Positions 26,393 through 57,627 of a stretch of DNA of 64,000 nucleotides are shown one piece after another; position 1 is the first letter of the stretch; every line of letters begins with the position of its first letter. Source of the stretch: Clostridia bacterium (lineage in GTDB: Bacteria; Bacillota; Clostridia; TANB77; RGIG9151); NCBI GenBank assembly GCA_017450465.1, contig JAFSUW010000003.1:4481-68480 (forward strand), given 5' to 3'. The translations under genes and the position numbers were made by a program. A model generated the notes under the pieces. It saw nothing but the letters and a program-made list of their open reading frames with translations. It had not been told where the DNA came from and did not search any database.

Positions 26393-26420
26393 AAGGGGAG
26401 AACAGAAGTTCTCTCCTTTT
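26393..26420. terminator. bidirectional intrinsic terminator AGGGGAGAAC-agaa-GTTCTCTCCTTTTT
   Basis: Sits between the convergent HK and recombinase genes. Confidence 0.65.
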
Positions 26421-27397: not shown

Positions 27398-27530
27398 TTT
27401 GCGCCTCCTTCTATCGTTTTTCGCAAAATTTTTATTTTGCGCAATTAGGAATATACAAAAACAAGGATAAATTTACTACTACCACTACTGCTATCAATGA
27501 AAAAATATATTTTAGAAAGGATCGGTAATT

Positions 27531-27959: not shown

Positions 27960-28012
27960 TTTAAAAGAAAAAAAGCGGATAGAATGCAAATTCTATCCAC
28001 TCGGCAAAAGAT

Positions 28013-28480: not shown

Positions 28481-28543
28481 AGGTGTTTTATACGACCTTG
28501 GGTTTTAAGTTTGCCAATATGTTCATCAAAATGAACAGAATGA

Positions 28544-33164: not shown

Positions 33165-33182
33165 AAATTCTCCTATAAAACA

Positions 33183-33300
33183 AGGGCGGGCCAGGAAATG
33201 TGAGACCCCAAATGTGGGCGGGCCAGGAGACCCGCCCCTACATTTGGCTGGTCGAAGTTTCGTCGTTTACGACCGACCCGCCCCTACATTAGTTGTGAAA
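33183..33300. repeat. GC-rich compound repeat/hairpin: direct repeats GGGCGGGCCAGGA x2 and GACCCGCCCCTACATT x2, plus nested long hairpin
   Basis: AAATGTGGGCGGG...CCCGCCCCTACATTT stem read from sequence. Lies between convergent 3' and 5' ends of minus-strand genes. Confidence 0.6.
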
Positions 33301-33310
33301 GATTTAATTT

Positions 33311-36300
33311 CTATCGTTCATAAATTTCGTAACTACCTGCTGTTGAATAACCATGCGAATTATCTTCATAATTTTCTGCTACTGCACTATCTACATAATA
33401 ACTACCTGGTAATAAGTTTCTTACCGTATATGTAATAGTTGCTTCGTTACTATTCTTATAGTTGTTCTTATATACTTCAAAGTATAACTTCTGCCCTTCC
33501 TTATTTAACAAATACCAATTATTTGATGAATAACTTGAACCATTAGTATGTGTAAATCTCATACCTGTTGGTACGACATCAGATATCAAATATCTTGCAT
33601 TTTCAGAATTTGCTGGGAATTTAACGTTAATTGTTACTGTTACTTCGTCCCCAACATTTCTTCCACCTGAAATACTCTTTTTAATGCTTATCTTGTTTTC
33701 GTCTACAACGTCAGTTAAGTTTCCAAAGTAGAATGCTTTACATTTAACACCACTATGAGCCGTTACTTTGAAGCTATTTAAGTCATTTTCATTTAATACT
33801 AATCTATAAAATCTTTTGCCTGAAAAATCTACGTTTTCTTTTTCGCCGTTTAGTTTATATTCTAATGTACCTTTATGGTCTGTCTTAGGGTTAAATACCT
33901 TTAAGTAAGAAGCAAGGTCAAGAGCTGGAGTATACTTATCTGATTTATTATCTATAACATACCTTAAGAAATCTTTCATATCGGTATTATTACATTTAAT
34001 TAATGCAATTAGTAAACTTGAAGTTGCTTCATAGTTTTCATCGTTATTACCAATTTGGATATAACGTGAACCACTGTTTCCTTTAACACTACCACTTAAT
34101 AATTTTACATACCACTGCGTTGCTCCATTAATATCTCCAATGTATGCAAGACCAGATATTAAGTTTATATTATCTCTCATTGTAAATCCACTATTGTTAG
34201 TTAATAAATAATTTATATCATTTAATACTGGTTCTTTTAAGGCAGCAAGTCCAAAGTACGCTGCGCTTACTTCTTCACTTGTTGCATCTTTCTTAGCTAA
34301 TATGTTATTGAAATAATATTTAGCTTCTTTTGCATCTAAATACTCAGGCGCAATAGCACATAATTTTGCTGTAAATAATACATCTGCATCTGCATATGAA
34401 AGTATTTGTGCACCACCAGTATAAGATTGTATATCATTAAATTCTTCTATTTCGTAAATATCTTCACCTGCAAATGTATTAAATCTTTCATAAACAAGAT
34501 TTCTTGCTATTTTTTGGTCATTGGTTCTGCCCCAACTTGTTGCAAGTATTTTGCTTATGTTATCGTAATATAAACCGTTTTCTTCATTATAGAATGTTAA
34601 AGTTACAGGGAAACGTGCCGCTTCTATATCTAATGCTTTAGATAAATTTACATCACTTACTATAGGTATTTCATGTAATGACGAAAGTACTGTAATAGGT
34701 TTCTTTATACCATCTGTATAATTTCCAGCAGCCACTTTAACACTTACATCGTAAGTACCTTCAGGTAATTTCCCAAAATTAAATACTGCTATATCATTTT
34801 TATTTTTTGTTAATTCAATTTCTTGATCTTTACCATTACCACTGATTTTTGCAACATATTTTACATCATCAGGTACATTTTTCTTGTCACTACCAGCTAT
34901 TCTTGCAGTAAATACAACATCATCATCTTTTGCATATTTTGTATTTATTACTTGGTTAACAAAGAATGGCAACCCGCAAGTTATATTTTTAGTAGCAGAA
35001 CCTGCACGAATGTTGTCTGTAATACCAACAGCAGTTATTCTCCAAGAAGTTAAATTGTCTGGTAATTTAAATGATGCAGTTGTCTTTCCGTTACTACCAG
35101 TAGTTATGTTGATAAAGGCTGCAGTATCTGCAAAATCACTTCTATAACCTTCATCGCCACCTTCACCACCTGCTTCTGCAGTAGTGTAATTTCTTCTTAT
35201 TACATTTGAAACATATTGAGTAACACTATGATAATCGTATGAATATAATCTAGATAAAACATATACTTCTTGATTTCTTATGGCAAATGCTGCTTCATCT
35301 ACAACACTCATTATAAGTTTTGTTTTAGCATATTTCCCGCTTTTATCTTTTGCTTCTACTGTCATATTTACTGTATCTCCAGGATTATATGCTTCTTTAT
35401 CAGTTGAAATTGTAATATCTAAACTTCTATCATTATATTCAAAATATACATGTCTATCACTTAATGCATAAACATTTTTACCATCAAAGTATGCTCCTGC
35501 TACTCCAATATCTGGAACATATTCTTCCTTAAAGGTAAATGAAATTTCATCTTTATTTGTAACTGCACTTTCTAGCAAAGTATCATTATATAATGTGTAC
35601 AATATTTTGCCATCATTAGTAATACGATTACCTTTTTTATTAAGGAATAATTTTACTTCATCTTTTACAGAATATGTCCATTCATCATTTTCAGTACTTA
35701 ATGAATAATAATCTCCATAATAGTAATCATCATCATCATAGTACGCTGAATCATATTTAAACCAATTATAAAGAGTTGTCTTACCTTTAAATCCATCTTT
35801 TAAGGTATATTCTAATTCTGCAGTATACCATACATTCTTTTCATCAGGATATGTAGTAGTAATTTTAGTTTCACCATTTACAGTAAACGGAATTGTATCA
35901 ATGGTAGTTGTTTCAGTTCTATAATTATATTTTTTACGATTTACTCTATTAATATAGTCATAGTATTCTCCTGCTTCTTCTCTAATTGACTCATGTTTTA
36001 TTACTTTTATAGTACCTGTTGCAGTTGATCCTGCACCTTTTAACTTATCGTAATTGCCATAAGTATATTCATCCCATTTTCCAAAATTGATACTATTAGT
36101 TGATAATGTAATTTCATTATTTACCCAATCTGCTTCAAACATATAGTTTGAAGGGAAAAATGTTGCATAGCACTCAGTCCATGCATTATTCTCGTCATCT
36201 CCAGTGGTACTAATCTCTTGCCATATAGTAGTTGGATGCCAAGAAGTAGCCGGATATCTAAATGCACTATTTTGTAAAACTCTTGTTACTTCTTTTGTTC

Positions 36301-38065
36301 CAAATTTATCGAGTGTAACATCTTTACTTTCTCCATTAGAATATACACTCACTTCTAAACCATCTGCTGGAGTTCCATCATAAAAAGTGCCTGTTATAGT
36401 TGTTTTAGCTGTTTCTCCTTCTTTATAATATTTTTTATCAAATGAAGCACTTAAAATATATGTTGGTTTAGTATATTCTGTTATTTCAATAGATTTCATA
36501 AAAATCTCTTTATCATTTATCTTCATATCTATATCATAATAGTTAGAAACTATTTTTGAAAATTCAAAATTACCAACAAATGTTCCATCAGAGTTTATAT
36601 TTACTTTTTGTGTAGCGATATCACTAAAGGCAATATCTACTGTTTTTGGAGCAACAGCACTACTCTTCTTTGGCAAAATTACTCCCCAAAAATTTATCTT
36701 ATCGGTTGGTAAATATACTTCTCTATCAGTATAAAAATAAGTATAGTATAAGTCATTTAAGGTTTCTTCTTCTTTATCTTCTAAATAAATATATTCTGCA
36801 AAACGCTTACCATCAGTAGATGTTACATATAATGGTACACATTTCCCAGGTGTGTAATAAAAAATTGCAACACCATTTTCATTAGTTTTAGCACTCATAG
36901 TATCAAGCTTAACTGTAGCATTTGCAACAGGTGCTCCTGTTACACTATCATTACACCATATTACCGTACTACCTGAACCACTTTGAACATAAGTTACAAT
37001 ATCTGTGATTTGTAAACATAATTGCATATGTTGATTTTTTAACTTACCAACGCCTTCGCCAGTTTTTATATCTACCACATAATAACCTGCAGGTAGTGGC
37101 TCTGGGAATACAATCATTCTTGAATAATCATAATCACTTTCATTCTCATCAATAAGTTTAGTTTCGAAATGAAGTGCTGATTTCAAACCTTCAATTGATA
37201 TTTTATCCGATACTTGTTCGATGTATTGTTCTGGCATACCCACATTATATACATCAACAAAAAATGTTTCGTTTCTCCAATCAGTATAGCTTGTACCACC
37301 TATATCTATAATAGGAGTTTCTTTTGTTGAATAAGAAATGTTGTCTTCATTTAATAAATATAACTGCGTTCCACTATTACCCGTATATTCTTTCGAAGTT
37401 GTAAATGAATATATATAATCTTTTCCAAGTTCAGTGCCATCTATTGCCTTATAGTTTGGCGAAATTGTTATTTCATACTTTGTAGAATACGTTAATGATT
37501 CAGAAGGTATAAAGCAAACCTTCTTACCTATTATTTCAAATTTACCATTTACTTTTGGTGAAATTGTAAAGAATCCTGACATATCTGTAGGAACTTTTGA
37601 AAAATACATCTCAATTCCTGTATTTATTGGCACACCAGTACGTTCATCTGCAGGCAAAGTTGATGTTACTTTGAAATCTGCTTTTGTTTGGAATGCCCAA
37701 GAAAGACCTGGTTCTTCTTCGGACTCAGTATATATATTATAAACTGTGTTATCTGCAAGTGCTACCTTTGGCTTTAAGTAATAATTTCCACTACCTTTTT
37801 TAGTGATATCAAAATCTACAGTAGGTGAAATTTTTATTACTTTTTCTAGTTCGTCTACTGGATAATCTTCATTAGAACTAATGTAAAACCCCGTACCTAC
37901 ATCAATACCAGCATTTGTATCGTTTTCTGCTACGACTGTAAATTTATAATTTTTTGCTACTTCTATAACATTGTTTACGTTTTTGAATAGTATTGTTGAT
38001 ACTGCAATCATGACTATTAGCACAACTACTCCTGCACCAATCAAAACTTTTTTCTTAAGATCCAT
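33311..38065 (-). CDS. giant (1584 aa) membrane-anchored alpha-2-macroglobulin-like surface protein, thioester motif not seen
   Basis: N-terminal TM anchor. LPDNLTSWRITAVG matches the conserved A2M-family motif (LPDsITtW...). Long run of beta-rich MG-like repeats. No CxEQ found on reading. GGGGAGGA RBS 37 nt after murD stop. Confidence 0.5.
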   Translation of the reverse strand: MDLKKKVLIGAGVVVLIVMIAVSTILFKNVNNVIEVAKNYKFTVVAENDTNAGIDVGTGFYISSNEDYPVDELEKVIKISPTVDFDITKKGSGNYYLKPKVALADNTVYNIYTESEEEPGLSWAFQTKADFKVTSTLPADERTGVPINTGIEMYFSKVPTDMSGFFTISPKVNGKFEIIGKKVCFIPSESLTYSTKYEITISPNYKAIDGTELGKDYIYSFTTSKEYTGNSGTQLYLLNEDNISYSTKETPIIDIGGTSYTDWRNETFFVDVYNVGMPEQYIEQVSDKISIEGLKSALHFETKLIDENESDYDYSRMIVFPEPLPAGYYVVDIKTGEGVGKLKNQHMQLCLQITDIVTYVQSGSGSTVIWCNDSVTGAPVANATVKLDTMSAKTNENGVAIFYYTPGKCVPLYVTSTDGKRFAEYIYLEDKEEETLNDLYYTYFYTDREVYLPTDKINFWGVILPKKSSAVAPKTVDIAFSDIATQKVNINSDGTFVGNFEFSKIVSNYYDIDMKINDKEIFMKSIEITEYTKPTYILSASFDKKYYKEGETAKTTITGTFYDGTPADGLEVSVYSNGESKDVTLDKFGTKEVTRVLQNSAFRYPATSWHPTTIWQEISTTGDDENNAWTECYATFFPSNYMFEADWVNNEITLSTNSINFGKWDEYTYGNYDKLKGAGSTATGTIKVIKHESIREEAGEYYDYINRVNRKKYNYRTETTTIDTIPFTVNGETKITTTYPDEKNVWYTAELEYTLKDGFKGKTTLYNWFKYDSAYYDDDDYYYGDYYSLSTENDEWTYSVKDEVKLFLNKKGNRITNDGKILYTLYNDTLLESAVTNKDEISFTFKEEYVPDIGVAGAYFDGKNVYALSDRHVYFEYNDRSLDITISTDKEAYNPGDTVNMTVEAKDKSGKYAKTKLIMSVVDEAAFAIRNQEVYVLSRLYSYDYHSVTQYVSNVIRRNYTTAEAGGEGGDEGYRSDFADTAAFINITTGSNGKTTASFKLPDNLTSWRITAVGITDNIRAGSATKNITCGLPFFVNQVINTKYAKDDDVVFTARIAGSDKKNVPDDVKYVAKISGNGKDQEIELTKNKNDIAVFNFGKLPEGTYDVSVKVAAGNYTDGIKKPITVLSSLHEIPIVSDVNLSKALDIEAARFPVTLTFYNEENGLYYDNISKILATSWGRTNDQKIARNLVYERFNTFAGEDIYEIEEFNDIQSYTGGAQILSYADADVLFTAKLCAIAPEYLDAKEAKYYFNNILAKKDATSEEVSAAYFGLAALKEPVLNDINYLLTNNSGFTMRDNINLISGLAYIGDINGATQWYVKLLSGSVKGNSGSRYIQIGNNDENYEATSSLLIALIKCNNTDMKDFLRYVIDNKSDKYTPALDLASYLKVFNPKTDHKGTLEYKLNGEKENVDFSGKRFYRLVLNENDLNSFKVTAHSGVKCKAFYFGNLTDVVDENKISIKKSISGGRNVGDEVTVTINVKFPANSENARYLISDVVPTGMRFTHTNGSSYSSNNWYLLNKEGQKLYFEVYKNNYKNSNEATITYTVRNLLPGSYYVDSAVAENYEDNSHGYSTAGSYEIYER

Positions 38066-38102
38066 TTTTTATCCTCCCCTTCAAGATTTATATCGGAAAA
38101 AA

Positions 38103-39440
38103 TTATAGATTATTAATTACTCTTTTAAAATCTTCTCCACGGTCTTCAAACTTCTTGTATTGGTCCCATGAAGCACATGCAGGGCTAAGTAAAATTGTGT
38201 CCCCACTTGACGCATGATTATATGCAGCAGTAGTTGCTTCTTCTAGTGTCTCTACTACTATACAATCCATTTTTATATTATCTGCAAATTCTTTAATTCT
38301 TTCTTTAGTCTGGCCATAGCAAACTATTAATTTAGTATTTTTTAAGTAACTTACAAGCCCTTCAAATGAATGACCGCGGTCAAGTCCACCAAGTAATAAA
38401 ATTGTAGGTGTGTTAAACGAACTAAGCGCGATTTGTGTAGATTTTATATTGGTTGCCTTAGAGTCATTGTAAAATGCGATGCCATTTTTAGTTGTTACAT
38501 ATTCAAGTCTATGCTCTACACCCTTAAACTCTTTTAAAACTTCGTTTATTACATCATTTGAAACGTTAAACTGCTTTACTACCATTATTGCACACATTAT
38601 ATTTTCATAGTTGTGATTGCCTTTTAATAAGATATCTTTTAATGCAATTACTTTTTCGCCTTTATAACATATATAACCGTCTTCTATATATGCATCCTTT
38701 TTACTTGATATTGAAAAATATTCTTTAGTAGAAGGAATTTTGTTATCATATTCCATAGAATCTTTATCATCAAAATTTAATATACCGATGTCATTTTTAG
38801 TATGTCTATTAAAAATCTTAACTTTTTGATTTTTATAATTTTCGTAAGTACCGAAATGATCAAGATGTACTTCACTTAAATTTGTAAGTACACTTATATC
38901 TGTTTTGAAATTAATAATATCATTTAATTGGTGCGAAGATATTTCTAATACCAGTGTATCTCCTTCTTTTACATTACCAATTAATGATGATACTGGATAA
39001 CCAATATTACCGCCTAAAACAACAGGAAGACCTGCTCTTTTCATTATTTCATAAGTAATAGTTGTAGTAGTTGTTTTACCATTAGAACCTGTTATGCCGA
39101 CTATTTTTACGTTATTAGGAAGTAAGCTATATGCCACTTCTACTTCGTTTGTAACTGGTATATTTAGCTTATTTGCTTTAATACAAACAATGTGATTTGG
39201 ATGAACACCAGGATTTTTAATTACATAATCAAATGAATCATCTAGTAAATCTTCTGGTTTGTCTGTTAATACAAATTTAATTCCTAAACTTTCGAGTTCT
39301 TTTACATGATCTTCATCTTGTTCCTTAAAATCTGTAATTAAGATTTCATTATTGTAGTTATGAAGTAACTTTGCTGCTGCATAACCGCTCTTTGCCATAC
39401 CAAGAATAAAAATCTTTTTGTTTTCAAACATAATTATCAC
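38103..39440 (-). CDS. murD: UDP-N-acetylmuramoylalanine--D-glutamate ligase
   Basis: N-terminal Rossmann KIFILGMAKSGYAAAKLL, Mur ligase P-loop GITGSNGKTTTT. 445 aa. Confidence 0.8.
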   Translation of the reverse strand: MIIMFENKKIFILGMAKSGYAAAKLLHNYNNEILITDFKEQDEDHVKELESLGIKFVLTDKPEDLLDDSFDYVIKNPGVHPNHIVCIKANKLNIPVTNEVEVAYSLLPNNVKIVGITGSNGKTTTTTITYEIMKRAGLPVVLGGNIGYPVSSLIGNVKEGDTLVLEISSHQLNDIINFKTDISVLTNLSEVHLDHFGTYENYKNQKVKIFNRHTKNDIGILNFDDKDSMEYDNKIPSTKEYFSISSKKDAYIEDGYICYKGEKVIALKDILLKGNHNYENIMCAIMVVKQFNVSNDVINEVLKEFKGVEHRLEYVTTKNGIAFYNDSKATNIKSTQIALSSFNTPTILLLGGLDRGHSFEGLVSYLKNTKLIVCYGQTKERIKEFADNIKMDCIVVETLEEATTAAYNHASSGDTILLSPACASWDQYKKFEDRGEDFKRVINNL

Positions 39441-39462
39441 CCTTTTAATAAATTTTGTTAAA

Positions 39463-42054
39463 TTATAATTTTTCTTTTAACCTATACAAAATATTTAACG
39501 AATCAATTGGTGTAACTCCATTTAAGTCAAGTTTTTCTAATTCTGTTGCTATTGCTGCACCTTTATAATTAAATAAATCAACTTGACCAGAAACAAATGT
39601 ATTTGTCTTCTTATTAATTTCTTTGGTATTTTTCTTATTAATGTCTGAATCTTCAAGTTGTTTTAATACTTCTTTTGCTCTATTTACAACAGCATATGGT
39701 ACACCAGCTAACTTTGCTACATGGATACCATAACTACCATCTGCACCGCCACGAATTATCTTTCTAAGGAAAATTACGTCATCTCCCTTTTCTTTAACTG
39801 AAATACAATAATTTTTTACATTACTTATTTTATTCTCAAGCTCAGTAATTTCGTGATAATGAGTCGCAAAAAGTGTTCTTGCACCAATAGTTTCACTCAT
39901 ATATTCAATAACTGACCATGCGATACTTAAACCATCAAAAGTACTTGTCCCACGACCAATTTCATCAAGTATAACCAAACTTTTTTTAGTTGCATTATTT
40001 AATATATTTGCTACTTCAGTCATCTCAACCATAAAAGTAGATTGACCCATAGCAAGATCGTCTGATGCTCCAACCCTTGTAAAAATTCTATCTGTGATTC
40101 CTATATGTGCTGCTGTGGCAGGGACGAAACTTCCTATTTGAGACATAAGTGTAATAAGTGCAACCTGTCGCATATACGTAGATTTACCAGCCATATTTGG
40201 TCCAGTAATAATATTTATTGTATTATCTTCTAAATCAAGTACCGTATCATTTGGTATAAATTCGCCTTCAGCTAACATTTTTTCTACTACTGGATGTCTT
40301 CCATCAGTTATTTCTATCACATTACTATCATCAACAACTGGTTTTGCATAATTATTTTTTTCAGCCGTTTCTGTAAGCGATATAATCGCATCTAAATTTG
40401 CAACCGATGCTGCTGTTCTTTGTAAACGTTCAACCTGCTTTGCTATATATTCACGAATTTTTGTAAATTCCTCGTACTCAAGTAATATTACTTTCTCTTC
40501 AGCACCAAGGATTGTTTCTTCCATCTCTTTTAGTTCTGGAATAATATATCTTTCACCTGTGGTTAAGGTTTGTTTTCTAATATAATTTGCAGGTACTTGA
40601 CTTAGGTTTGATTTAGTTACTTCTATATAGTAGCCAAACACTTTGTTAAAACTGATTTTTAAGTTCTTTATTCCTGTATTTTCACGTTCTCTTGCCTCTA
40701 ATTCAGCAAGCCACGTTTTACCATTGTTACCTGCATTTTTAAGTTTATCTATTTCAGCATTATAGCCCTTTTTAATAATTCCGCCTTCTTTTACTGAAAT
40801 AGGTGGTTCTTCTTCTATTGCCTTTTCAATTAAATCACGAACATCCGTAAGTAAGTCAAAATTATCAAGCAATTTATTTATGAATGCATCGTCTATCGTT
40901 TTTAATAGTTCTAAAAGGCCGGGTAATTGATTGAGCGAAAGCTTTAATGCAATTAAATCTCTAGCATTTGAACTGCCATACACAACTTTACCTGTAAGTC
41001 GTTCTATATCATATATTTTATTCAATTTTTCAATAATATCCGCCCTAAGTATAGGGTCTTTTTTTAGTGTTTCAATACAGTTTAATCGCTCATTTATTTT
41101 ATTTACATCAATAAGTGGCATATCAACCCATGAACGAAGCATTCTTGCACCCATTGCTGTATTTGTATTGTCTAAAACCCAAAGAAGTGTTCCTTTTTTA
41201 CTTTTATCACGCATTGTTTCAGTAATTTCAAGATTTCTTCTTGTAGATATATCAAGTGTCATGTATCTATCTGTACTATAAACTTGCAATTTATTAATAT
41301 GCTCAAGATTAGATTTTTGAATTTCTTCTAAATATTTAAGTAAAATTCCTGTTGCAATATATCCGCTAGACATTTTTTCTTGTTCGATAAAATTATCGAT
41401 ATGTTGTTTTATTTTTGAAAGACAAATATCTCTGTTATATTCTTCTTCATTAAATTTTGAAATATAACTATTAAAACGTTTTTTAACTGCACTTATTTCA
41501 GCAGAATCAAAAAATGCCTCATTTACAACAATTTCAGATGGACTAAGTCTTGCTAGTTCATCAAGCATTGTAGATATTGCATTAACACCACTTAGCTCTG
41601 TACACATAAGTTCACCTGTTGTAACATCTGCAAAAGCAAATCCAATATAATTTGCTATTTTATATATTGAAACAATATAGTTATTTTTTCTTTCATCAAG
41701 CATAGCAGACTCTGTTACAGTACCAGGAGTTACTATTCTTGTAATTTCTCTTTTTACTAAACCTTTGGCTAGTTTTGGGTCTTCCATTTGCTCACAAATA
41801 GCTACTTTATAACCTTTTTTTATAAGACGAACAAGATAATTTTCAATTGCATGATAAGGAATACCGCACATAGGTGCACGTTCTTCTTGCCCACAATCTT
41901 TACCTGTTAATGTAAGTTCTAATTCTCTTGATACAGTAATTGCATCATCAAAAAACATTTCGTAAAAATCACCTAAACGAAACATAAGGATTGAGTCTTT
42001 ATTTTCAGATTTTATTTTTAAGTATTGTTTCATCATCGGTGTAAACTCTGCCAT
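39463..42054 (-). CDS. mutS: DNA mismatch repair protein MutS
   Basis: N-terminal TPMMKQYLKIKSE...GDFYE mismatch-binding motif. Walker A GPNMAGKST. 863 aa. Confidence 0.9.
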   Translation of the reverse strand: MAEFTPMMKQYLKIKSENKDSILMFRLGDFYEMFFDDAITVSRELELTLTGKDCGQEERAPMCGIPYHAIENYLVRLIKKGYKVAICEQMEDPKLAKGLVKREITRIVTPGTVTESAMLDERKNNYIVSIYKIANYIGFAFADVTTGELMCTELSGVNAISTMLDELARLSPSEIVVNEAFFDSAEISAVKKRFNSYISKFNEEEYNRDICLSKIKQHIDNFIEQEKMSSGYIATGILLKYLEEIQKSNLEHINKLQVYSTDRYMTLDISTRRNLEITETMRDKSKKGTLLWVLDNTNTAMGARMLRSWVDMPLIDVNKINERLNCIETLKKDPILRADIIEKLNKIYDIERLTGKVVYGSSNARDLIALKLSLNQLPGLLELLKTIDDAFINKLLDNFDLLTDVRDLIEKAIEEEPPISVKEGGIIKKGYNAEIDKLKNAGNNGKTWLAELEARERENTGIKNLKISFNKVFGYYIEVTKSNLSQVPANYIRKQTLTTGERYIIPELKEMEETILGAEEKVILLEYEEFTKIREYIAKQVERLQRTAASVANLDAIISLTETAEKNNYAKPVVDDSNVIEITDGRHPVVEKMLAEGEFIPNDTVLDLEDNTINIITGPNMAGKSTYMRQVALITLMSQIGSFVPATAAHIGITDRIFTRVGASDDLAMGQSTFMVEMTEVANILNNATKKSLVILDEIGRGTSTFDGLSIAWSVIEYMSETIGARTLFATHYHEITELENKISNVKNYCISVKEKGDDVIFLRKIIRGGADGSYGIHVAKLAGVPYAVVNRAKEVLKQLEDSDINKKNTKEINKKTNTFVSGQVDLFNYKGAAIATELEKLDLNGVTPIDSLNILYRLKEKL

Positions 42055-42079
42055 AGTAAACTCCCTTTCTTTTGCTACA

Positions 42080-43060
42080 TTATCTTCCTAAACCAATTTT
42101 TTGTTTCATTACTTCATATTTTTGCTTAAATAATTCAGTAGTTCTATCGCGTCCTTTATTAAGAATGTCTTCTATATAGTCACTACCTACAATTGTTTTA
42201 TATCTTTCTTGAATACCTGAAAGTTCATTAACAACTACATCTGCTACTTCTTTTTTGAATGTTCCATAATTTGCTCCATCAAATTTCTTTTCAACCTCTT
42301 CAACAGTTTCGCCAGTTAAACTTATATAAATATTTATCAAATTTGATATCCCTGGCTTATTTTCTGGGTCAAATTTAATTAACATGTCACTATCAGTTGT
42401 TGCAGACATTATTTTTTTACGAACAAGATTTAAATCTTCTAACACACAAATAACGCCTTTTTTATTCTCTGCAGATTTACTCATCTTTACAGTAGGATTT
42501 TGTAAATCCATTATTTTAGTACCTTCTTTAGCAATAAGTGGCTCTGGCATTACAAAAGTATCACCATACTTTTTATTGAAACGTTCTGCTATATCACGTG
42601 CAAGCTCAACATGTTGCTTTTGGTCAATACCAACAGGCACATAATCTGTATCTACTCCTATGATATCTGCAGCCATAAGTACAGGATAAGTAAGTAGCCC
42701 AGATGTAAAATTAGTGTGCTTTAAGCTCTTATCCTTAAATTGCGTCATACGACTTAGTTCACCATAATATGTATTACATTCAAGTAACCATGAAACTGCT
42801 GGAATATATGGATTTTCCGACTGAATGTATATCGTATTTTTATCTGGATCAATACCACACGCAATGTATATAGCAATCAAGCTCTTTATATTCTCGCGAA
42901 GCTCATCCGGCTCCTGCGGAATTGTAATAGAATGAAGGTCTGCTACAAACAAAAATGAGTCATATTCATTTTGATAAACCTTCATCTGCCTGATTGCTCC
43001 TATATAATTTCCAAGTGTTATTACGCCAGTAGGTTGTAAACCTGTTAAAACTCTTTTCAT
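42080..43060 (-). CDS. trpS: tryptophan--tRNA ligase
   Basis: TGLQPTGVITLGNYIGA (HIGH-class variant), KMSKS. 326 aa. Confidence 0.9.
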   Translation of the reverse strand: MKRVLTGLQPTGVITLGNYIGAIRQMKVYQNEYDSFLFVADLHSITIPQEPDELRENIKSLIAIYIACGIDPDKNTIYIQSENPYIPAVSWLLECNTYYGELSRMTQFKDKSLKHTNFTSGLLTYPVLMAADIIGVDTDYVPVGIDQKQHVELARDIAERFNKKYGDTFVMPEPLIAKEGTKIMDLQNPTVKMSKSAENKKGVICVLEDLNLVRKKIMSATTDSDMLIKFDPENKPGISNLINIYISLTGETVEEVEKKFDGANYGTFKKEVADVVVNELSGIQERYKTIVGSDYIEDILNKGRDRTTELFKQKYEVMKQKIGLGR

Positions 43061-43177
43061 AAAAACTCCTCATTTCAAAAATATTCTCAAGATATTTTAT
43101 CATAAAAATAGTGATTGTTACAAGTTTTTTAAGAAATTTACTCATAAAAAAGAGACCTAATTAGGTCTCTTTTAATT

Positions 43178-46100: not shown

Positions 46101-46501
46101 TCAAGACCATATCTACCTGGATGATCAATTCTACCATAGCAGAATAGTTTACCTGAATTATTACCGCTAGAATCGTTAACAATAAGTTCAGAACCTTCTT
46201 CAATTTTAATCATTGTAGTTTCAAATCCAGTTTCAGCATTTAATTCAACTGAATGCCCATTTAAATCAAGAGTTTTACGACCTTTGCCAAGTGTTATCCA
46301 ATATGGACCAGTTTTCATCGTAGTTGTTGTATAGATGATATCTGATACAACTTTAATTGTAACATCTCCATCCATACTTAAATATTTTGTAAGTGATTGT
46401 GGTCCTGCAATTTCTTGATATTCCTCTTCAGCAAAAGCTGTAAAAGGTAGAACACAAAAAACTGCAACAATAAAGAGAACAAGTAACTTTCTCATTTTCA
46501 T
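43178..46501 (-). CDS. large (1107 aa) secreted surface protein with C-terminal triple SLH (S-layer homology) anchor, beta-helix-like middle region and a Cys-rich zinc-ribbon-like insert
   Basis: Signal peptide. C-terminal repeats FTDTDD..., FTPDAEITREQMARMI, FGVLGTATREQAMII typical of SLH. Hairpin plus T-run terminator at 43143-43175. Confidence 0.7.
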   Translation of the reverse strand: MKMRKLLVLFIVAVFCVLPFTAFAEEEYQEIAGPQSLTKYLSMDGDVTIKVVSDIIYTTTTMKTGPYWITLGKGRKTLDLNGHSVELNAETGFETTMIKIEEGSELIVNDSSGNNSGKLFCYGRIDHPGRYGLDYSNKDVKYRNVIHVDGGKLTVNGGTLEAGRSKEIWITGGMDIENYDHQLDYALQFGVLGWAIGARFDGYAWQQVNGDCITLDGGEVTINDGIFLGRGFSDLNPYEEDMDVRLDYSRAAVIRATEGVLNINNGEFLAKGNADLFALSKNAYNGGSVTGKIKSGVFSTNHLRVLNIPTINVRYSRLNGWVVGTEKKYEGYYNPASDPGSIHFPYEALSPDTHVVTKDGEELPSNEWDAKHLYNTKDVATIVVNYKNNSNWLRTKRNANNPKEISSAKILGTMANGMVLDANALKCSDTGIKNIKTTWYHNGVALTEEQEALAGKYSAMATLTAGNGYSFTNNTKFVIMGKTPEKITVSDDGKYAYIYSKEYEFECDHSYNQDSEIHFEGTIHYQQCSVCGEKIIEERHIFDGGDNFGNITTYTCRTCGYSYDEENDRIALNGLVINVPVAKGGEKLPIPEVTDEYKDYAKIMSYEWHKDEIDGEKIDALEKYEDNEVYYLIARARANDGYYFKDNAVMACAAVAKGTSSADDNVLIGTFRIVAHESANADVYMPALAPGMTMEDFIKGIESNVAGKATSNMQIKVQKYGEDDYYFVKRNPKGEWSLYNDNGTLDDFFSMSVEPEERYDLELGFSSGKYYVADDAITFVSDAAYDGYKTEGGETWYTVYVLAQAASNLISDVSIVDVSMPEIGGTPDVTFSVSNTKALTPALGEWDTDSRFEEGVGYVFTAKVELADGYKFSKKVTATVNHEPAEITLGGNTATISYTFPVLEKEMEIIKDVEVNEEEEAKDNGNATWSNASDWAVEFLKNANNQGIMPKLFDGEDMTKNITRKEFAHVAVKLYEKLTGQKAIPVAKNPFTDTDDIEVLKAFNLSITSGTSTTTFTPDAEITREQMARMIENALTKAGIDTSVDFDSVEKFADDDLMQSWSRGAIYFMSGKDIIKGMGNNLFGVLGTATREQAMIISSKCVDTFGN

Positions 46502-46626
46502 AAATAATCTCTCCCTTTTCTTATGTATTTTTATTAAACCAAAAATATTATATATTTTTGATTTCTTTATTTCAAGATTAATAACTTTTTTTATAAAAAA
46601 GCCAAACCTTTCGGCTTGGCTTAATT

Positions 46627-49600
46627 TTACTTCTTTAATCCATCTATTACTTGATTATTTGTCTTTAACAAAATTGTTCCTGGTTCAAATTGTTCACCAT
46701 TATTTGTAACTCTTGCTCTATATGTTAAAACAGTTTTTGTTTCATTTGGACTCCATTTTGGATCATATGGATTCCAATAACTAATTGTAAGTTTTTGACC
46801 ATTCTGACTTCTTAAGTATCCACAGAAACCAGTTCCATATAAATACTCTACAAATGTCATATTATTCGGAATAGCATCTTCAATTATTGCACTATATTTA
46901 TTACCATCATCGTATAATTTCTTATTATCTATCGTAATTGATACTTCTACAATATCTCCTTCTTTAGCATTTGTATTACTATAAGTTTTTGAAATAATAT
47001 ATTTGTTCTTTGGAACAGTTGTAAAGTCTACTGGTTTATATTCTTCTAGCATCACACTTAAGTTATTGGTTATGCTATCTACAGCAATATCATTCTTACG
47101 AGCAAGTAAAACACGCTTAAATCCAATACCTTTTACTTCTACTTCTTCTATATTACCATTTACGTTTAATTTTAGTACACCCTTTTTGTAATTCTTAGAA
47201 ACTGCATTTTGAACGTAATATAACTTAATAAAATCACTATGTTCAGGTAAACTTTCCTTTGCCATAAATGTTCTATATAAATCGTTTCTTTCATTTAAGT
47301 TTAACTTAATTGCAAGTATTGTTTTAAGTTCAAACTCTATTTCTTCTTTTTCAGTTATAGTGTTACTTACAATATCATAAATTTCTTTTGCATCATCATA
47401 TGAACCCAAATCTGCAAAAGCAAGTGCTAAATATAATACTCTTTCTTTAGTGAATGCACCTTTATTCTTAAGCATTTCTTCTTTTGCTTCACGAAGTTCT
47501 TTAAGTGAAACATCATCTAAGTTTACTTTTGCCCAAAGTACTGCTTCATCTCCAAGGCGAACTTCTATCTTTTCTAGCACTTTTTCTTTTTCATAATCGG
47601 ATATACGCACTGATTTTGTTCCTAACATACGAAGAGCAAGACGTGCATCATCAGAACTATTTTTTAGTACTTTAAACAGGCGTGTATTTGCATCATACAT
47701 ATATGATTTACTATAATCAAACTCGGTGCCGTTATATAAGTTACCTAGTATTCTTGATGCTTCTTTTGAAATAAGAGATGTGTCATTTCTTTCAGCATTA
47801 AATAAATATGATAATTCAAATATAGTTGGTAAAACTTCTTTTAAGTCAGTATTTACTAAATATAAATATCCTTTTGGTGAAACTATAGTAATTTTATCAC
47901 CTGAATGCAAAATGATGTCTTTACGCATTGTAGCATCAAGTAAACTTTCTGTTACTTCTATCTCATCAATCAAAGTATCTTTTAAGCCATTACACGTGCC
48001 TGTTATTTTTATCTTATAAGTTCCCTTTTCTTTTATTGGCTTCTTTATCTTATATGATAAAACTTGTGCTACTTTTGCATTTACAGTGTCTTTTTCAAGA
48101 GTTTCATTGTTTTCGTTTAATATTTCTATATCAAATTTTACATCTTTACCACTATAAAGTTTTGAAAAACTCTTAATGTTAAATCCAAAGTTCTCTCCAA
48201 CTAAATATCTATCTTTATGATTTACATTTACGAAGAAATCTTTACTTACTTTAATCTTCTTTTCGTCTTCTTTTACTTTATAGTCATCGGATATTGCTTG
48301 TACAGTAATTGTCCATTCTGTAATGTTGTCTGGAAGTTTAATCTTTATGGTTGCTTCGCCATTTTCATCTGTCACAACATTTTCAAAGAACGCAGTAACT
48401 CGTAAATCATCTCTTACTGTACTACCTTCACTACTACTTTCAGCCATATCCAATGCAGCTTCTTCCATTACAGCTCCAGCAGCAAAATTAACCGAATCTG
48501 TCAAATTCATAATTCCCATTTCTTTTGTCATCACACGCATACTATTGCTACTTGAATTTATTCTATATGCATTTTGAAGTGTACTAATCATATCTGTGTA
48601 TACTGAACCATTAGCATCAATATATGCTGTATCAAGTGCCGATAAATTAATACCTGTTTTAACTCCCTTGCCATCAGATGTTGCTTTTATCTTTACAATC
48701 ATTTCATCCTTTGGCTCATAAACTTCTTTATCTAGAGTAACGCTTAAATCGAGTGTTAATGCTTCTTCGCAAAGTGATATAGTTGGCGAATAAGGATACC
48801 ACATATAATCATCAAAAGCAAACATTGAATAGTAAATGCCTACATTTGAAGTTGGCGAATATGTTTTTCTCGAGTCATATAATAATGTATATGTGCTAGC
48901 GTTTGCTCCCATTTCCTTAGTAAATGTAAAATGAGGAGCTTCACCTTTGTTGTGGTATATTTTATTTCCATCGGCAGATACAACTAGTGTATAGAAATCA
49001 AATTTTGAATAGTCATTAATACGTCTACCATGGTCATCTTTTAAGTAAAATTTAACTTCGTCACCAACTTTTAATTTGTCATTTCTTTCATAAGCAATTG
49101 CATAACTTAATTCATCATTTATAATTGGTGCTACATACTCTATTTCCTCATATTGTGTTGTAGAATTAACTGTTTTATATGAGTATGAATAAATACCACC
49201 ATCATATCCAAGTGCAAGTTCTTTTCCTGTGTCTGTAATTAAATATGCCTTAAAAGTATAATAACAATTTTTATCCTTCTTATAATTTTCAAGTTTGTAT
49301 GTGCCTTTACCATTTTTCATATCAACAATAAATGTTTTATTGTAACTAGGTTCAGCAACTTGGTCATATCTTACGACGTCTTCCATTTCTTTTGTATATT
49401 TATTATATCTTTGACCTGTAACGGTTCTTACAGTCTTATATGCACTCGCTACTACTTTAATTTTATCGTTTGCAGGTTTTGTACGGTCTAAGGATAAATA
49501 TTCGTTGAATTCGAAGTGATATTTATTTTCATCAACTATAAACCTAGCACCACCATCTGCTGAATGTTTATATGGGTACACCGTAAACGTAAATGTTTCT

Positions 49601-51594
49601 TGCTCGCCATCTATGTACGAATTAAGTATTGTAACTCTTGCAGTCTCGGGACGTAAATTTGTCTTTTCTTTAGCAATTACAAGAGGTACTTTCACAACTG
49701 CGTTACCTGAAGCATCTGTTTTTACAGTTCCTTTTTGTGGCTTCATAGAATCATTATAGTAATACTTATTATTGATTTCATATTCAAAATCTAGGTCAGT
49801 AAGTGGTGTTCCATCATAAGTTGCAGCAGTAATGTTTATAACACCTTCTTCACCTGTTAAATAGCTTGTCTTTTCTGGTTTTATTTCTATTTGATACTGC
49901 TTTAATTCATAATTTCGTATGCTTATATATCTTGAATAAATTTGCTTATCACCAATATAAAGTCTTGCCTGTAAACTTCCCTCATCATTCACATCAGTAA
50001 TTTCAAAATCTGTCTCAAATGTACCAACATCAGTTAGTGTAAGCGGTATTTCTTGCAAAACATCATCGTAATTTGAAATTATTTTTAATGTTGCATTATC
50101 TACTTTTACTTTACGATTTCTTGCATAACCCCAAAAATGAGCCGTTTCACCTACTTTATATGTATTTCTATCTACATATAGGTAACCATTGTTAAATCTA
50201 CTAAGTGAAGTTAATGAATTTTCACCATTAAATTTACTATACACTTGATATGAAATGTCTACTATATAATGCTTGTTACCACCATCAAATTCTATATAAT
50301 TAAATTCGTCTTCTAAATTTACTATCTTCCTAAACTCTTCAAGATAAAGCATACCATCGTTAGATGTTGTACCTAATTTTTGATTATTTAAGTACACATC
50401 AACACTATTATTGTTTCCATCTTTACCTTTGTAAAGGATCATGAAATTATCATCTGCAAGTGTTGAAACAGTGGCTACTGTGTTATTTATTTGGAACAAA
50501 GCTACCTCAGTATCATCATTTAATGTAAGTACTGCTAAATAGTAACCTTCTTCTTTTAAGGTTAAATTAGATTCAACAGAAATTTCATCTGAATAATAGT
50601 ACCTTTTCGTTTTTTTGGCCTCAGCATACCTATTCATTATTTCAGACTTGATATCTTTTTTATAAACTTCATTATACGATTTTGTATCATATGTATTTGT
50701 CAAATTTTCGCCTAGATCTATTTCTTTCATAAGTTTTAAGAAATTTTCTTTAGTTTTTACGTTAAATATTTTTACTTCTGCTTTCTTTAAGGAAAGTTCT
50801 TTATCCATGTCTATATATAAATTAAGTGATAAATCTATTTTAGAAGTTGGAGTATAACGATTTAATAGTAATAAAGTGCCATAAACATCTTCTGATTTTT
50901 CGTTTGCTACTAAAAAGCTATATTTATAATCTTCTCTTAATTCATTGCCATCTACATCTTTTAGGCCTTTTTTTACAGTAACTGTATAAGTTTTTCCCAT
51001 AGTAAAATTAGTATTATGTTCAAAACGATAATTATAAGTATAACTTTTTACCCATTTACCATTTACTTTTGGCTCTATTTCTACATATTTAGATAAATCT
51101 TCTACATTTACTTCTCCATTAAAACTGATTTCTGGTACTCCTTTTTCACCTAACACCTGATTATTATCTGGATATGTATAATCTACCTCAAAGATTCTCT
51201 CAGTTTGGAAAGCCCATCTTTTAGTTCCATCAGTCGTTTTTTCAATAACATTATAAACTTGATCTTCTTCTAAATCAGTTACTGGAGTAATTTTGTAGTT
51301 TTTACTATCTACTTTAGTTATTTCAATTTCAGTACGAGGTTTTAATGAAAATGTGTTATATACATATTCATCAGTAACATCCTTATCAAACTTTAAGTCA
51401 AAAGTAGTTTTAATAGGTATTTTACTATCTACCTCATCACTTGATACGATTTTTACATCACAAATTTTGTCAAATACTTCTTTCTCAGTAATATTGCTTG
51501 CAAGCTTAATTGCTGCTTTGCTTTCATTATTTGCTGCACAACCACACATAAGCATCATACAACATACAAATAAAAGAATCTTAAAATATCGCAT
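46627..51594 (-). CDS. giant (1655 aa) alpha-2-macroglobulin-like lipoprotein, paralog of 33311-38065, thioester motif not seen
   Basis: Lipoprotein signal MLMCGC. LPDNITEWTITVQAIS A2M-family motif. MG-like repeats. Terminator AAGCCAA...TTGGCTT at 46600-46626. Confidence 0.5.
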   Translation of the reverse strand: MRYFKILLFVCCMMLMCGCAANNESKAAIKLASNITEKEVFDKICDVKIVSSDEVDSKIPIKTTFDLKFDKDVTDEYVYNTFSLKPRTEIEITKVDSKNYKITPVTDLEEDQVYNVIEKTTDGTKRWAFQTERIFEVDYTYPDNNQVLGEKGVPEISFNGEVNVEDLSKYVEIEPKVNGKWVKSYTYNYRFEHNTNFTMGKTYTVTVKKGLKDVDGNELREDYKYSFLVANEKSEDVYGTLLLLNRYTPTSKIDLSLNLYIDMDKELSLKKAEVKIFNVKTKENFLKLMKEIDLGENLTNTYDTKSYNEVYKKDIKSEIMNRYAEAKKTKRYYYSDEISVESNLTLKEEGYYLAVLTLNDDTEVALFQINNTVATVSTLADDNFMILYKGKDGNNNSVDVYLNNQKLGTTSNDGMLYLEEFRKIVNLEDEFNYIEFDGGNKHYIVDISYQVYSKFNGENSLTSLSRFNNGYLYVDRNTYKVGETAHFWGYARNRKVKVDNATLKIISNYDDVLQEIPLTLTDVGTFETDFEITDVNDEGSLQARLYIGDKQIYSRYISIRNYELKQYQIEIKPEKTSYLTGEEGVINITAATYDGTPLTDLDFEYEINNKYYYNDSMKPQKGTVKTDASGNAVVKVPLVIAKEKTNLRPETARVTILNSYIDGEQETFTFTVYPYKHSADGGARFIVDENKYHFEFNEYLSLDRTKPANDKIKVVASAYKTVRTVTGQRYNKYTKEMEDVVRYDQVAEPSYNKTFIVDMKNGKGTYKLENYKKDKNCYYTFKAYLITDTGKELALGYDGGIYSYSYKTVNSTTQYEEIEYVAPIINDELSYAIAYERNDKLKVGDEVKFYLKDDHGRRINDYSKFDFYTLVVSADGNKIYHNKGEAPHFTFTKEMGANASTYTLLYDSRKTYSPTSNVGIYYSMFAFDDYMWYPYSPTISLCEEALTLDLSVTLDKEVYEPKDEMIVKIKATSDGKGVKTGINLSALDTAYIDANGSVYTDMISTLQNAYRINSSSNSMRVMTKEMGIMNLTDSVNFAAGAVMEEAALDMAESSSEGSTVRDDLRVTAFFENVVTDENGEATIKIKLPDNITEWTITVQAISDDYKVKEDEKKIKVSKDFFVNVNHKDRYLVGENFGFNIKSFSKLYSGKDVKFDIEILNENNETLEKDTVNAKVAQVLSYKIKKPIKEKGTYKIKITGTCNGLKDTLIDEIEVTESLLDATMRKDIILHSGDKITIVSPKGYLYLVNTDLKEVLPTIFELSYLFNAERNDTSLISKEASRILGNLYNGTEFDYSKSYMYDANTRLFKVLKNSSDDARLALRMLGTKSVRISDYEKEKVLEKIEVRLGDEAVLWAKVNLDDVSLKELREAKEEMLKNKGAFTKERVLYLALAFADLGSYDDAKEIYDIVSNTITEKEEIEFELKTILAIKLNLNERNDLYRTFMAKESLPEHSDFIKLYYVQNAVSKNYKKGVLKLNVNGNIEEVEVKGIGFKRVLLARKNDIAVDSITNNLSVMLEEYKPVDFTTVPKNKYIISKTYSNTNAKEGDIVEVSITIDNKKLYDDGNKYSAIIEDAIPNNMTFVEYLYGTGFCGYLRSQNGQKLTISYWNPYDPKWSPNETKTVLTYRARVTNNGEQFEPGTILLKTNNQVIDGLKK

Positions 51595-51673: not shown

Positions 51674-51767
51674 TTGTCAGCGGGGACAGCTTGTCAGAAG
51701 GGACGGGGGCAACTGACCACTTTGCTTTACATAAATGTGGTCATTTGCCCCCGTCCCTATTGACAGA
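51674..51767. repeat. GC-rich palindromic intergenic repeat element, copy 2 (inverted orientation relative to copy 1)
   Basis: TTGTCAGAAGGGACGGGGGCAACTGACCAC / GTGGTCATTTGCCCCCGTCCCTATTGACAG arms with partial extra arm GTTGTCAGCGGGGACAGC on the opposite side from copy 1. Confidence 0.7.
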
Positions 51768-53407: not shown

Positions 53408-53410
53408 GTT

Positions 53411-54220: not shown

Positions 54221-54322
54221 GAATTCTCCTTATTAAATTTATGTTTAGCGTGGAGCACAGCGTGCTCCGCTACAAGTTTGCGGATTTTTCTAATTTTATT
54301 TTTTTCCCCTATAAAAATAAAT

Positions 54323-55276: not shown

Positions 55277-55299
55277 ATTACTCTTCCTTTCTCTTTTGT

Positions 55300-56919: not shown

Positions 56920-56943
56920 ATTGTGCTCCTTTCAAAACTTTGT

Positions 56944-57615: not shown

Positions 57616-57627
57616 AATAGGCCTCCT

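Follow-up and report, generated by a model that had tools for sequence, protein, structure and literature searches.

Bacterial alpha-2-macroglobulins (A2Ms) have so far been described as Gram-negative, periplasmic proteins, in a 2026 review too, with type I accompanied by PBP1c and type II by the Mag/Yfa operon (PMC12939704, PMC5764988). Type I proteins carry the thioester motif CxEQ and have pbpC as a neighbour, and type II proteins, represented by MagD and YfaS, have no CxEQ and belong to a six-gene operon (PMC5764988). MagD traps the protease non-covalently after bait cleavage and does so without CxEQ (PMC5764988). The present analysis concerns a stretch of 64,000 nucleotides (nt) from a Clostridia bacterium (GenBank assembly GCA_017450465.1, contig JAFSUW010000003.1, positions 4,481 to 68,480 of the forward strand), in its whole length called the window, which encodes two giant A2M-like surface proteins. 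The names A2M1 and A2M2 are used throughout for the open reading frames (ORFs) of 1584 amino acids (aa) at 33311-38065 and of 1655 aa at 46627-51594, respectively.

It is near certain that A2M1 and A2M2 are true members of the A2M superfamily without a thioester. In Pfam searches A2M1 scored above the gathering score with Big_5, A2M_BRD (38.9 bits), A2M and MG2, with bMG10 slightly under its cut-off, and A2M2 did so with A2M, MG2 and Big_5. The A2M family (PF00207, cut-off 21) gave 35.2 bits for A2M1 and 43.3 bits for A2M2, and MG2 (cut-off 32.8) gave 35.6 and 38.1 bits. The thioester domain (TED) family PF07678 had no Pfam match in either protein, the receptor-binding family A2M_recep was likewise unmatched in Pfam, and no NCBIfam model matched A2M1, A2M2 or the S-layer homology (SLH) protein encoded between them. 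The LPDN(L/I)T(S/E)W signature is present in both, as LPDNLTSWRITA at residue 1001 of A2M1 and as LPDNITEWTITV at residue 1087 of A2M2. Searching the PDB with single sequences by phmmer gave nothing meaningful; a profile of 51 family members matched the structures of Escherichia coli YfhM (ECAM) at 4e-37 in four collinear segments. Comparison of the family profile with 17 thioester-type bacterial A2Ms by hhalign gave a probability of 100 and E values of 4e-100 to 9e-97, in an alignment that is collinear over residues 49-1583 and includes 1460-1489 aligned columns. A Foldseek search with the AlphaFold model of A2M1 residues 430-1584 (pLDDT 85.7, pTM 0.73) returned ECAM (5a42, 1.4e-50) and Salmonella A2M (1.5e-49) first, and after these CD109, C3/C4/C5 and TEP1. 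With hhalign values of about 1e-97 to 4e-100 and a Foldseek value of 1.4e-50, a chance match is excluded. The two proteins are related to each other as well (24% identity over about 1200 residues, blastp 4.6e-27), and because this identity is just 24% they are ancient paralogues and not products of a recent duplication.

Taken together, alignments and predicted structure show that the full A2M layout is kept: an N-terminal array of Ig/MG (macroglobulin) domains comes first, then a disordered bait-position loop and a compact TED-like domain made of helices, and an MG10-like domain ends the protein. In the A2M1 model a series of beta domains is followed by the helical domain at about residues 1161-1390 and by two C-terminal beta domains. 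The model is disordered at residues 770-784 and 948-972, and the latter segment occupies the bait position, immediately before the conserved R-x-DF-x-DTA-F / LPDN block. Both proteins are predicted to be exported and tethered at the outer face of the cytoplasmic membrane, A2M1 by a hydrophobic N-terminal helix and A2M2 as a lipoprotein. The lipobox pattern is absent from the N-terminus of A2M1, and close relatives of A2M1 have an N-terminus of the same kind.

A motif search found neither C.EQ nor C..Q anywhere in A2M1 or A2M2, and C.EQ does not occur in 72 family proteins; among the more distant database matches, which lie outside the family, most have PYGCxEQ. Both hhalign and hmmalign place the ECAM thioester YPYG-C1187-L-E-Q1190 opposite SWGR-T1181-N-D-Q1184 of A2M1. 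In A2M2 the equivalent stretch has lost the Gln along with the Cys. Among 155 non-identical family sequences, 142 have Arg and 12 have Thr at the position of the Cys, and none has Cys itself; a second, independent sample of 146 cluster representatives gives 135, 6 and zero; pooled over about 300 family sequences, Arg amounts to about 92%. The replacement motif R-x-[DE]-Q is conserved across the family. Thr at this position is confined to the A2M1 subclade, where T-x-[DE]-Q is kept in nine of the ten closest A2M1 relatives. Since Cys is found in 0/155 and 0/146 family sequences, loss of the thioester is an old and family-wide trait. With CxEQ replaced by TNDQ in A2M1 and RNDT in A2M2, covalent capture through a thioester is impossible.

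These results bear on an earlier note on the same DNA, which had proposed from reading the letters that the two giant proteins are paralogous A2M-family members without CxEQ. The family identity is confirmed by the Pfam matches to A2M, MG2 and Big_5, the paralogy by blastp, and the structure prediction that the note had called for, done for A2M1, has ECAM as its best match. The absence of CxEQ holds both in the motif search and in the alignment to the experimentally defined CLEQ of ECAM.

Comparison with characterized macroglobulins shows where the window proteins stand. With ECAM and the Salmonella protein Sa-A2M (5a42, 4ziq, 4rtd, 4u48) they share the fold, the collinear domains and the length (1584-1655 against 1653 aa), membrane tethering with an extracytoplasmic location, the LPDNxT..R block, a bait-position loop and a homologous TED including the Q..GG motif. 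They differ in that C1187LEQ of ECAM is TNDQ or RNDT here, that pairwise identity is too low for detection by phmmer, and that the hosts are Bacillota, Chloroflexota and Patescibacteria, whereas type I proteins occur in Gram-negatives. Neighbouring genes were surveyed in 88 independent family loci for murD, mutS, trpS and the SLH protein, and in 90 neighbourhoods for clustering of ORFs. A tblastn search with E. coli PbpC found nothing in the window, only one of the 90 loci has a class A PBP-like ORF nearby, and the window ORFs scanned had no match to transglycosylase or transpeptidase families of Pfam. Type II proteins of the MagD/YfaS kind resemble A2M1 and A2M2 in the absence of CxEQ, the bait-position loop, the association with the cytoplasmic membrane and the presence of accessory gene(s) (PMC5764988, PMC3735191). 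The family profile scores E. coli YfaS at 191 bits versus 130 bits for YfhM, and YfaS matches both window genes directly in tblastn (2.8e-13 and 2.3e-8). The TED region, however, aligns with YfhM and type I proteins, and no alignment to YfaS was obtained for the RxDQ motif and the TED-like region. Blastp and tblastn searches with YfaP, YfaQ, YfaT and YfaA (DUF2135, DUF2300, DUF1175, DUF2138) gave no match in the window or the 90 neighbourhoods. The mag/yfa partners of type II are thus replaced here by a Memo-like protein, the phyla differ, and trapping has been shown by experiment on the MagD side only. Eukaryotic A2M, C3 and TEP proteins (TEP1 2pn5, CD109 8s3o, human A2M) have the same architecture of MG ring and TED, with Foldseek values of 1e-40 to 1e-47 and matches to the family profile, but identity is 10-14%, and the window proteins are bacterial, membrane-tethered and without thioester or A2M_recep match.

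The family is large. A search with the helical TED-like domain alone retrieved 668 proteins, each representing one cluster at 50% identity and almost all of them 1550-1880 aa long, and a genome scan with a 15-sequence family alignment as query found at least 335 genome stretches that encode relatives. Among the hosts are Oscillospiraceae, Anaerotruncus colihominis, Sedimentibacter, Peptococcaceae, Dehalobacter, Vallitalea, Dehalococcoidia and many Patescibacteria, so that the phyla represented are Bacillota, Chloroflexota and Patescibacteria. Transmembrane (TM) helix and lipobox anchors both occur throughout. A2M1 is identical to an NCBI entry with the title 'MAG: Ig-like domain-containing protein [Clostridia bacterium]', further members go under 'alpha-2-macroglobulin family protein' or under a COG2373 name, and A2M2 has about 20 orthologues at 55-62% identity in metagenome-assembled genomes (MAGs) of Clostridia. 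Literature searches, which were of incomplete coverage, found no A2M of Gram-positives or of the candidate phyla radiation and no association of Memo with A2M. The family is best described as a large third branch of bacterial A2M with its own replacement motif and its own recurrent partner; it is counted as a third variant because it is thioester-less yet has no Yfa neighbours and, but for one of the 90 loci, no class A PBP-like one, and because the branch was not found in the literature searches.

Two observations on members and neighbours of the family may be added. Several Patescibacteria members contain intein/Hint-type Pfam domains (PF07591, PF14890, PF05203, PF14623) inside the A2M-like protein (P0020, P0023, P0029, P0030, P0038, P0040, P0042, P0044, P0048, P0113), and their BLAST query coverage is about 60%. 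In the Clostridia MAG GCA_002308995.1 a 1685-aa A2M with TED_complement, A2M_recep and an intact GCFEQ (L008:1-2278) is encoded about 8 kb upstream of an A2M2 orthologue, so thioester-type A2Ms also exist in Clostridia.

When all ORFs of the 90 neighbourhoods were clustered without prior assumption, one family alone recurred widely, with members of about 300 aa and a gene that comes immediately after the A2M gene in the same orientation. The family is Memo-like. Its gene directly follows the A2M gene in 46 of the 79 loci with at least 1 kb of downstream sequence, usually overlapping or less than 100 nt away and often with a gap of -4, -1, 0 or +2 nt, and the pairing spans Bacillota, Chloroflexota and Patescibacteria. 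In the window the genes flanking the corresponding gene are those for A2M1, tRNA-Met, Dus and a HAD hydrolase; its product matches Pfam Memo (PF01875) at 1.4e-19 with 70.8 bits (cut-off 27) and TIGR04336 with 74 bits (cut-off 26). A signal, lipobox or TM segment is present at the N-terminus of all 48 partners, and H64, H94, D199, H202, D237 and Y277 are invariant among them. The partner thus resembles MEMO1 and AmmeMemoRadiSam protein B in a family match above cut-off and in invariant His and Asp residues, and it differs in being exported or lipidated and paired with a giant A2M-like gene. The TIGR04336 family is known for its genomic association with genes for AMMECR1-like and radical-SAM (protein A) proteins. 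No cluster of this type was recognised among the annotated clusters of the 90 loci or the flanking ORFs, although no search was aimed at either gene. In gene context, the recurrent partner of the A2M1-type branch is an exported Memo-like protein, which the earlier note had not remarked on, and not murD.

Two other candidates for a partner were rejected. A P-type ATPase gene lies directly downstream in four close A2M1 relatives, which is consistent with local synteny. PGA_cap as a general third partner was found in just five loci, four of which are Memo fusions in Collierbacteria-like genomes (L067, L069, L070, L072; at about 15160-16940 or equivalent), where the Memo-like partner is fused to a CapA-like PGA_cap domain in proteins of 560-625 aa. 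A separate PGA_cap gene adjoins the Memo-like gene in a Dehalococcoidia locus (L019:10028-10912).

Further gene contexts were observed among the relatives. Seven loci of Bacillota and Patescibacteria (L013, L033, L034, L035, L060, L077, L087) have a gene for an extracytoplasmic function (ECF) sigma factor immediately before the A2M-like gene or overlapping with it, mostly at position 9000-10200 approximately and at 2025-2700 in L035. The A2M-like proteins of these loci have a cytoplasmic N-terminus of 60-110 aa before the TM helix, a topology like that of anti-sigma factors. In one Oscillospiraceae-like clade (L020, L028, L030, L038, L049, L052) murA (TIGR01072, 463 bits) comes after the A2M-Memo pair in five loci and immediately after the A2M gene in L038; a convergent gene for an HtrA-type serine protease is present in five of these loci, and then a gene for an SH3 protein.

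In view of its resemblance to type II A2Ms, a most likely mechanism for the family can be proposed. A foreign protease would cut the exposed loop at the bait position, after which the MG ring and the TED would rearrange and the protease could be held sterically and non-covalently, as it is by MagD. Trapping at the membrane surface would shield membrane-proximal envelope proteins. Members of the A2M1-type branch would work together with the exported Memo-like lipoprotein encoded downstream, with its putative metal site, which may stabilise, mature or process the A2M, by analogy with the accessory proteins of the Mag/Yfa systems, among which MagB serves the processing or stability of MagD. Taken as a whole, a thioester-less A2M branch with non-covalent, MagD-like trapping, a Memo-like accessory protein and an accidental adjacency to murD is the account that we consider probable, with moderate confidence. 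For the protease-trapping function by itself, which is argued from analogy, the chances appear to be roughly even.

Several observations weigh against this mechanism. The bait-position loop is Gly/acid-rich and fairly conserved (GGEGGGGG-like; family consensus xGxEGGGGG). Baits of the classical kind are hypervariable, and Gly/acid-rich sequence is a substrate for few proteases. That Arg is nearly invariant where the Cys used to be suggests a new role for the site. The A2M1 model superposes better on activated ECAM (TMq 0.53 for 4rtd, which is also N-terminally truncated so that the score may be inflated, and 0.51 for 4ziq) than on native ECAM or Sa-A2M (0.33), and therefore a spring-loaded resting state is not evident; the activated-like fit may be an artefact of modelling or truncation, or may reflect a different resting conformation of the family. 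Regarding the partner, a 146-nt structured, terminator-like spacer splits A2M1 from the Memo-like gene in the window. It has a folding energy of -63.6 kcal/mol (z -5.3) and holds two copies of a GC-rich repeat, AATGTAGGGGCGGGTC (33229-33290); it may be an inserted repeat. Several close A2M1 relatives are without Memo linkage and have the P-type ATPase gene instead, and the 14 loci with A2M2 orthologues revealed no common neighbour, which leaves the A2M2 branch without a partner. Finally, the topology of the sigma-linked proteins speaks for a signalling and not an inhibitory role of some members.

A different explanation takes its departure from the genes around A2M1. The earlier note had seen in the position behind murD a link of A2Ms to cell-wall synthesis, and in the SLH protein a component of a module for protease defence or adhesion. 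In this explanation the two A2Ms, the SLH protein and trpS-mutS-murD form one module, with A2M1 functionally coupled to peptidoglycan precursor synthesis by co-transcription with murD, in place of the A2M-PBP1c pairing of Gram-negatives. The gap of 37 nt between murD and A2M1 and the tight trpS-mutS-murD run agree with this, and since there is no terminator between murD and A2M1, their co-transcription is possible as far as the sequence goes. Upstream of A2M1 a promoter-like TTTAAA-16-TATAAT (38129-38102) is found directly 5' of the gene, with its TATAAT overlapping the murD stop codon, which speaks against the module; however, such matches are no commoner in this AT-rich DNA than in shuffled sequence (100 found versus 111 expected), and therefore sequence cannot decide co-transcription. 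Cell-wall genes do occur elsewhere near relatives. In addition to the six murA loci with their convergent HtrA gene, there are murD and alr about 8 kb upstream in L006, alr and a MurJ-like gene downstream of the A2M2 orthologue in L008, and, in the window, an amidase and surface-glycan cluster upstream of A2M2. The murA loci appear to be one related clade and are therefore probably one event, and together with the sigma-linked contexts they point to an envelope theme without rescuing the murD hypothesis. The survey of neighbours is what speaks most directly to the proposal: murD adjoins the family gene in none of the 88 loci and lies within 10 kb in L006 only (a Mur-ligase-like ORF in L075, 21% identical and on the opposite strand, was left out of the count), mutS is near none and trpS near one, and homologues of the SLH protein are near none, except for L008, where an SLH domain was matched at a distance of about 9 kb. 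The five closest A2M1 relatives have five different upstream genes, namely a divergent patatin gene (51% identity to A2M1), an NAPRTase gene with trpS two genes further (39%), gltX (37%), an SDF transporter gene (35%) and ytfJ, the nearest called gene at about 450 nt (32%), and, as said, the A2M2 orthologues share no neighbour. The place of A2M1 behind trpS-mutS-murD is thus a lineage-specific accident of gene order, with which read-through transcription into A2M1 may be connected, and the bracketing of genes by the two A2Ms is a juxtaposition in one genome. The adjacency is not evidence for functional coupling to peptidoglycan precursor synthesis, the module is very unlikely, and neither of the two proposals about murD and the SLH protein can be upheld.

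Other alternatives concern the proteins themselves. Instead of trapping proteases, the ectodomain could serve as a sensor or scaffold that reports damage or presents a substrate to the Memo-like enzyme, with the sigma-linked relatives as anti-sigma factors and cleavage of the loop as site-1 proteolysis. This would be in agreement with the seven ECF sigma loci and their long cytoplasmic N-termini, with a conserved loop and a conserved Arg at the former thioester that are unlike a generic bait and trap, and with the enzyme-like His/Asp site of the Memo-like partner and its fusion to PGA_cap in some Patescibacteria. The window proteins have only 5-6 cytoplasmic residues, however, and therefore cannot bind a sigma factor; no ECF sigma gene is present among the window ORFs scanned, a Pfam search of the sigma-linked members detected no known anti-sigma domain, and the whole MG/TED trap architecture is kept, which a simple sensor would not need. 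Such a role appears unlikely, if with an appreciable chance of being right. For A2M1 and its subclade one may also think of the Thr as a substitute for the Cys, forming an intramolecular oxo-ester with the Gln, comparable to the ester cross-links of Gram-positive adhesins, by which capture would be covalent but slower or the protein would be stabilised by a cross-link. In the alignment T1181 and Q1184 fall exactly on C1187 and Q1190 of ECAM, Thr is restricted to this subclade and kept with T-x-[DE]-Q in nine of the ten nearest relatives, and Thr-Gln ester cross-links are known from Gram-positive surface proteins (PMC8382745; bioRxiv 10.1101/2025.03.26.645365). Those bonds require a catalytic set of His and acid residues in an Ig-like fold and not in a TED, and because about 92% of the family has Arg and A2M2 has lost the Gln, the function of the family does not depend on a cross-link. 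The oxo-ester is highly improbable. That the proteins are functionless, decaying relics of thioester A2Ms is scarcely credible. The catalytic Cys is lost and the context of A2M2 is not conserved, but both reading frames are intact (1584 and 1655 codons), conservation with invariant residues extends over the whole length of hundreds of full-length homologues, the RxDQ replacement is itself conserved, and many lineages show translational coupling of the partner gene. Elements of these alternatives could also be combined into an envelope surveillance system of an RxDQ A2M and an exported Memo protein, with cleavage of the conserved Gly/acid-rich loop or binding to it as input, the Memo-like metalloprotein acting on the macroglobulin or together with it, the sigma-linked members as protease-sensing anti-sigma factors and the A2M1 subclade (TxEQ) as an oxo-ester sub-variant, but this scheme is doubtful and we attach little weight to it.

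Bacillota, Chloroflexota and Patescibacteria are generally regarded as lacking an outer membrane. If non-covalent trapping by these A2Ms is true, rudimentary bacterial innate immunity would extend to bacteria with membrane proteins exposed through the cell wall, and the poorly understood Memo family would gain an extracytoplasmic context that can be tested. The first reading of the locus is corrected in that the adjacency of murD provides no new link between A2Ms and cell-wall synthesis.

Table. Coordinates of A2M1, A2M2 and associated features in the window
Feature	Positions	Strand	Basis or remark
A2M1, thioester-less alpha-2-macroglobulin-like protein, 1584 aa, N-terminal signal-anchor helix	33311..38065	(-)	ORF, Pfam, AlphaFold/Foldseek
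A2M1 N-terminal hydrophobic helix, residues 7-27, VLIGAGVVVLIVMIAVSTILF, predicted membrane anchor	37985..38047	(-)	Kyte-Doolittle 2.84
A2M1 bait-like disordered loop, residues 948-972, ...RRNYTTAEAGGEGGDE	35150..35224	(-)	pLDDT <50, model residues 519-543
A2M1 helical TED-like domain, residues ~1161-1390	33896..34585	(-)	Model helices 732-961; hhalign to type I TED
A2M1 thioester-site equivalent T1181-N-D-Q1184, Cys replaced by Thr	34514..34525	(-)	hhalign, hmmalign
Memo-like (AmmeMemoRadiSam-B-like) lipoprotein, 286 aa, lipobox FTSC	32304..33164	(-)	Pfam, TIGR04336
GC-rich structured spacer between A2M1 and Memo-like gene, 146 nt	33165..33310	(-)	Nested hairpins, ends CCCGCCCUUGUUUUAU
A2M2, thioester-less A2M-like lipoprotein, 1655 aa, distant A2M1 paralogue	46627..51594	(-)	ORF, Pfam
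A2M2 lipobox LMCGC (FVCCMMLMCGC), Cys19 predicted to be lipidated	51538..51552	(-)	PROSITE PS51257-type pattern
A2M2 thioester-site equivalent R1269-N-D-T, Cys and Gln both lost	47779..47790	(-)	Family alignment, hmmalign
Hairpin and T-run after A2M2, intrinsic-terminator-like (AAGCCAAGCCGAAAGGTTTGGCTT)	46599..46622	(-)	Sequence scan
SLH-anchored surface protein, 1107 aa	43178..46501	(-)	Pfam SLH; neighbour, not conserved partner
trpS-mutS-murD, tightly spaced housekeeping genes 5' of A2M1	38103..43060	(-)	Pfam, NCBIfam; context only
trpS	42080-43060	(-)	Pfam/NCBIfam
mutS	39463-42054	(-)	Pfam/NCBIfam
murD	38103-39440	(-)	TIGR01087, 409 bits
murD-A2M1 intergenic region, 37 nt	38066..38102	(-)	Ribosome-binding site GGGGAGG 8 nt 5' of ATG; no terminator

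The description of the locus in the earlier note was largely accurate. Six ORFs, for A2M2, the SLH protein, TrpS, MutS, MurD and A2M1, are present at the claimed coordinates, every one on the minus strand, with the lengths of 1584 and 1655 aa borne out. The anchoring of A2M1 by a TM helix and of A2M2 as an LMCGC lipoprotein agrees with the hydrophobic helix and the lipobox pattern, and the tight spacing was found as claimed, with 25 nt between trpS and mutS, 22 nt between mutS and murD, and a ribosome-binding site of its own for A2M1 in the gap behind murD. The note had also named a promoter or terminator between murD and A2M1 as an argument against a connection. No hairpin with T-run was found in a scan from trpS to A2M1, which is compatible with co-transcription, and matches like the promoter-like site occur at background frequency. 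The SLH gene, like A2M2, ends in a hairpin-plus-T-run terminator. The 5' region of trpS is only 117 nt long and holds this SLH-gene terminator and a promoter-like site TTGTAA-17-TGATAAAAT (window 42055-43177). TrpS has no T-box leader, and an Rfam scan of 31-53 kb found no riboswitch or other RNA except tRNA-Met.

The SLH protein, encoded between the two A2Ms, has a C-terminal SLH triplet (Pfam SLH 1.2e-11; Foldseek to Bacillus anthracis Sap SLH 3pyw, TMt 0.73), and its AlphaFold model (pLDDT 80.6) consists of Ig/FN3-like repeats with an N-terminal beta-rich region. About 55 homologues, annotated as 'S-layer homology domain-containing', occur in Ruminococcaceae and Clostridia MAGs. An invariant cluster of Cys and His is formed by C507, H509, H524, C528-x2-C531, H540 and C556-x2-C559, and this segment (residues 507-559) resembles a double zinc ribbon, which would be unusual for a secreted S-layer-anchored protein. 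The protein had been described in the earlier note as an SLH-anchored beta-helix with a Cys-rich insert; the SLH anchor and the Cys cluster are found, and the beta-helix is only weakly supported, by a Foldseek match to 7xz7 at E 1.4e-2.

Some observations on other parts of the window remain. Upstream of A2M2, positions 52400-64000 contain a cell-surface cluster with DUF6270, an Amidase_3 N-acetylmuramoyl-L-alanine amidase, a sugar epimerase/dehydratase, an HMGL-like protein and a cytidylyltransferase. The same region has two ORFs in tandem that are paralogues of each other, of 780 aa (59678-62020) and 657 aa (62024-63997), with DNA repeats spaced 2355 nt; they had no convincing Pfam match beyond a below-threshold HAD_2 in the second. 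A palindromic element of high GC content, TTGTCAGAAGGGACGGGGGCAAYTGACCAC together with its inverted partner, is present in two intergenic copies (5343-5395 and 51700-51757), one of them in the 306-nt region upstream of A2M2, and is different from the repeat in the A2M1-Memo spacer; its arms gave four matches versus zero expected, in a genome of about 31% GC. At 20075-24367 a stand-alone, single-module protein of the nonribosomal peptide synthetase type is encoded (1430 aa; condensation, AMP-binding, PP-binding and terminal reductase domains), followed by a histidine kinase gene. The region 26000-28500 looks like a replication terminus: GC skew changes from positive to negative with a cumulative peak at about 27-28 kb, and gene orientation changes there from plus to minus. 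A gene for a XerC/D-type tyrosine recombinase is located at 26420-27397.

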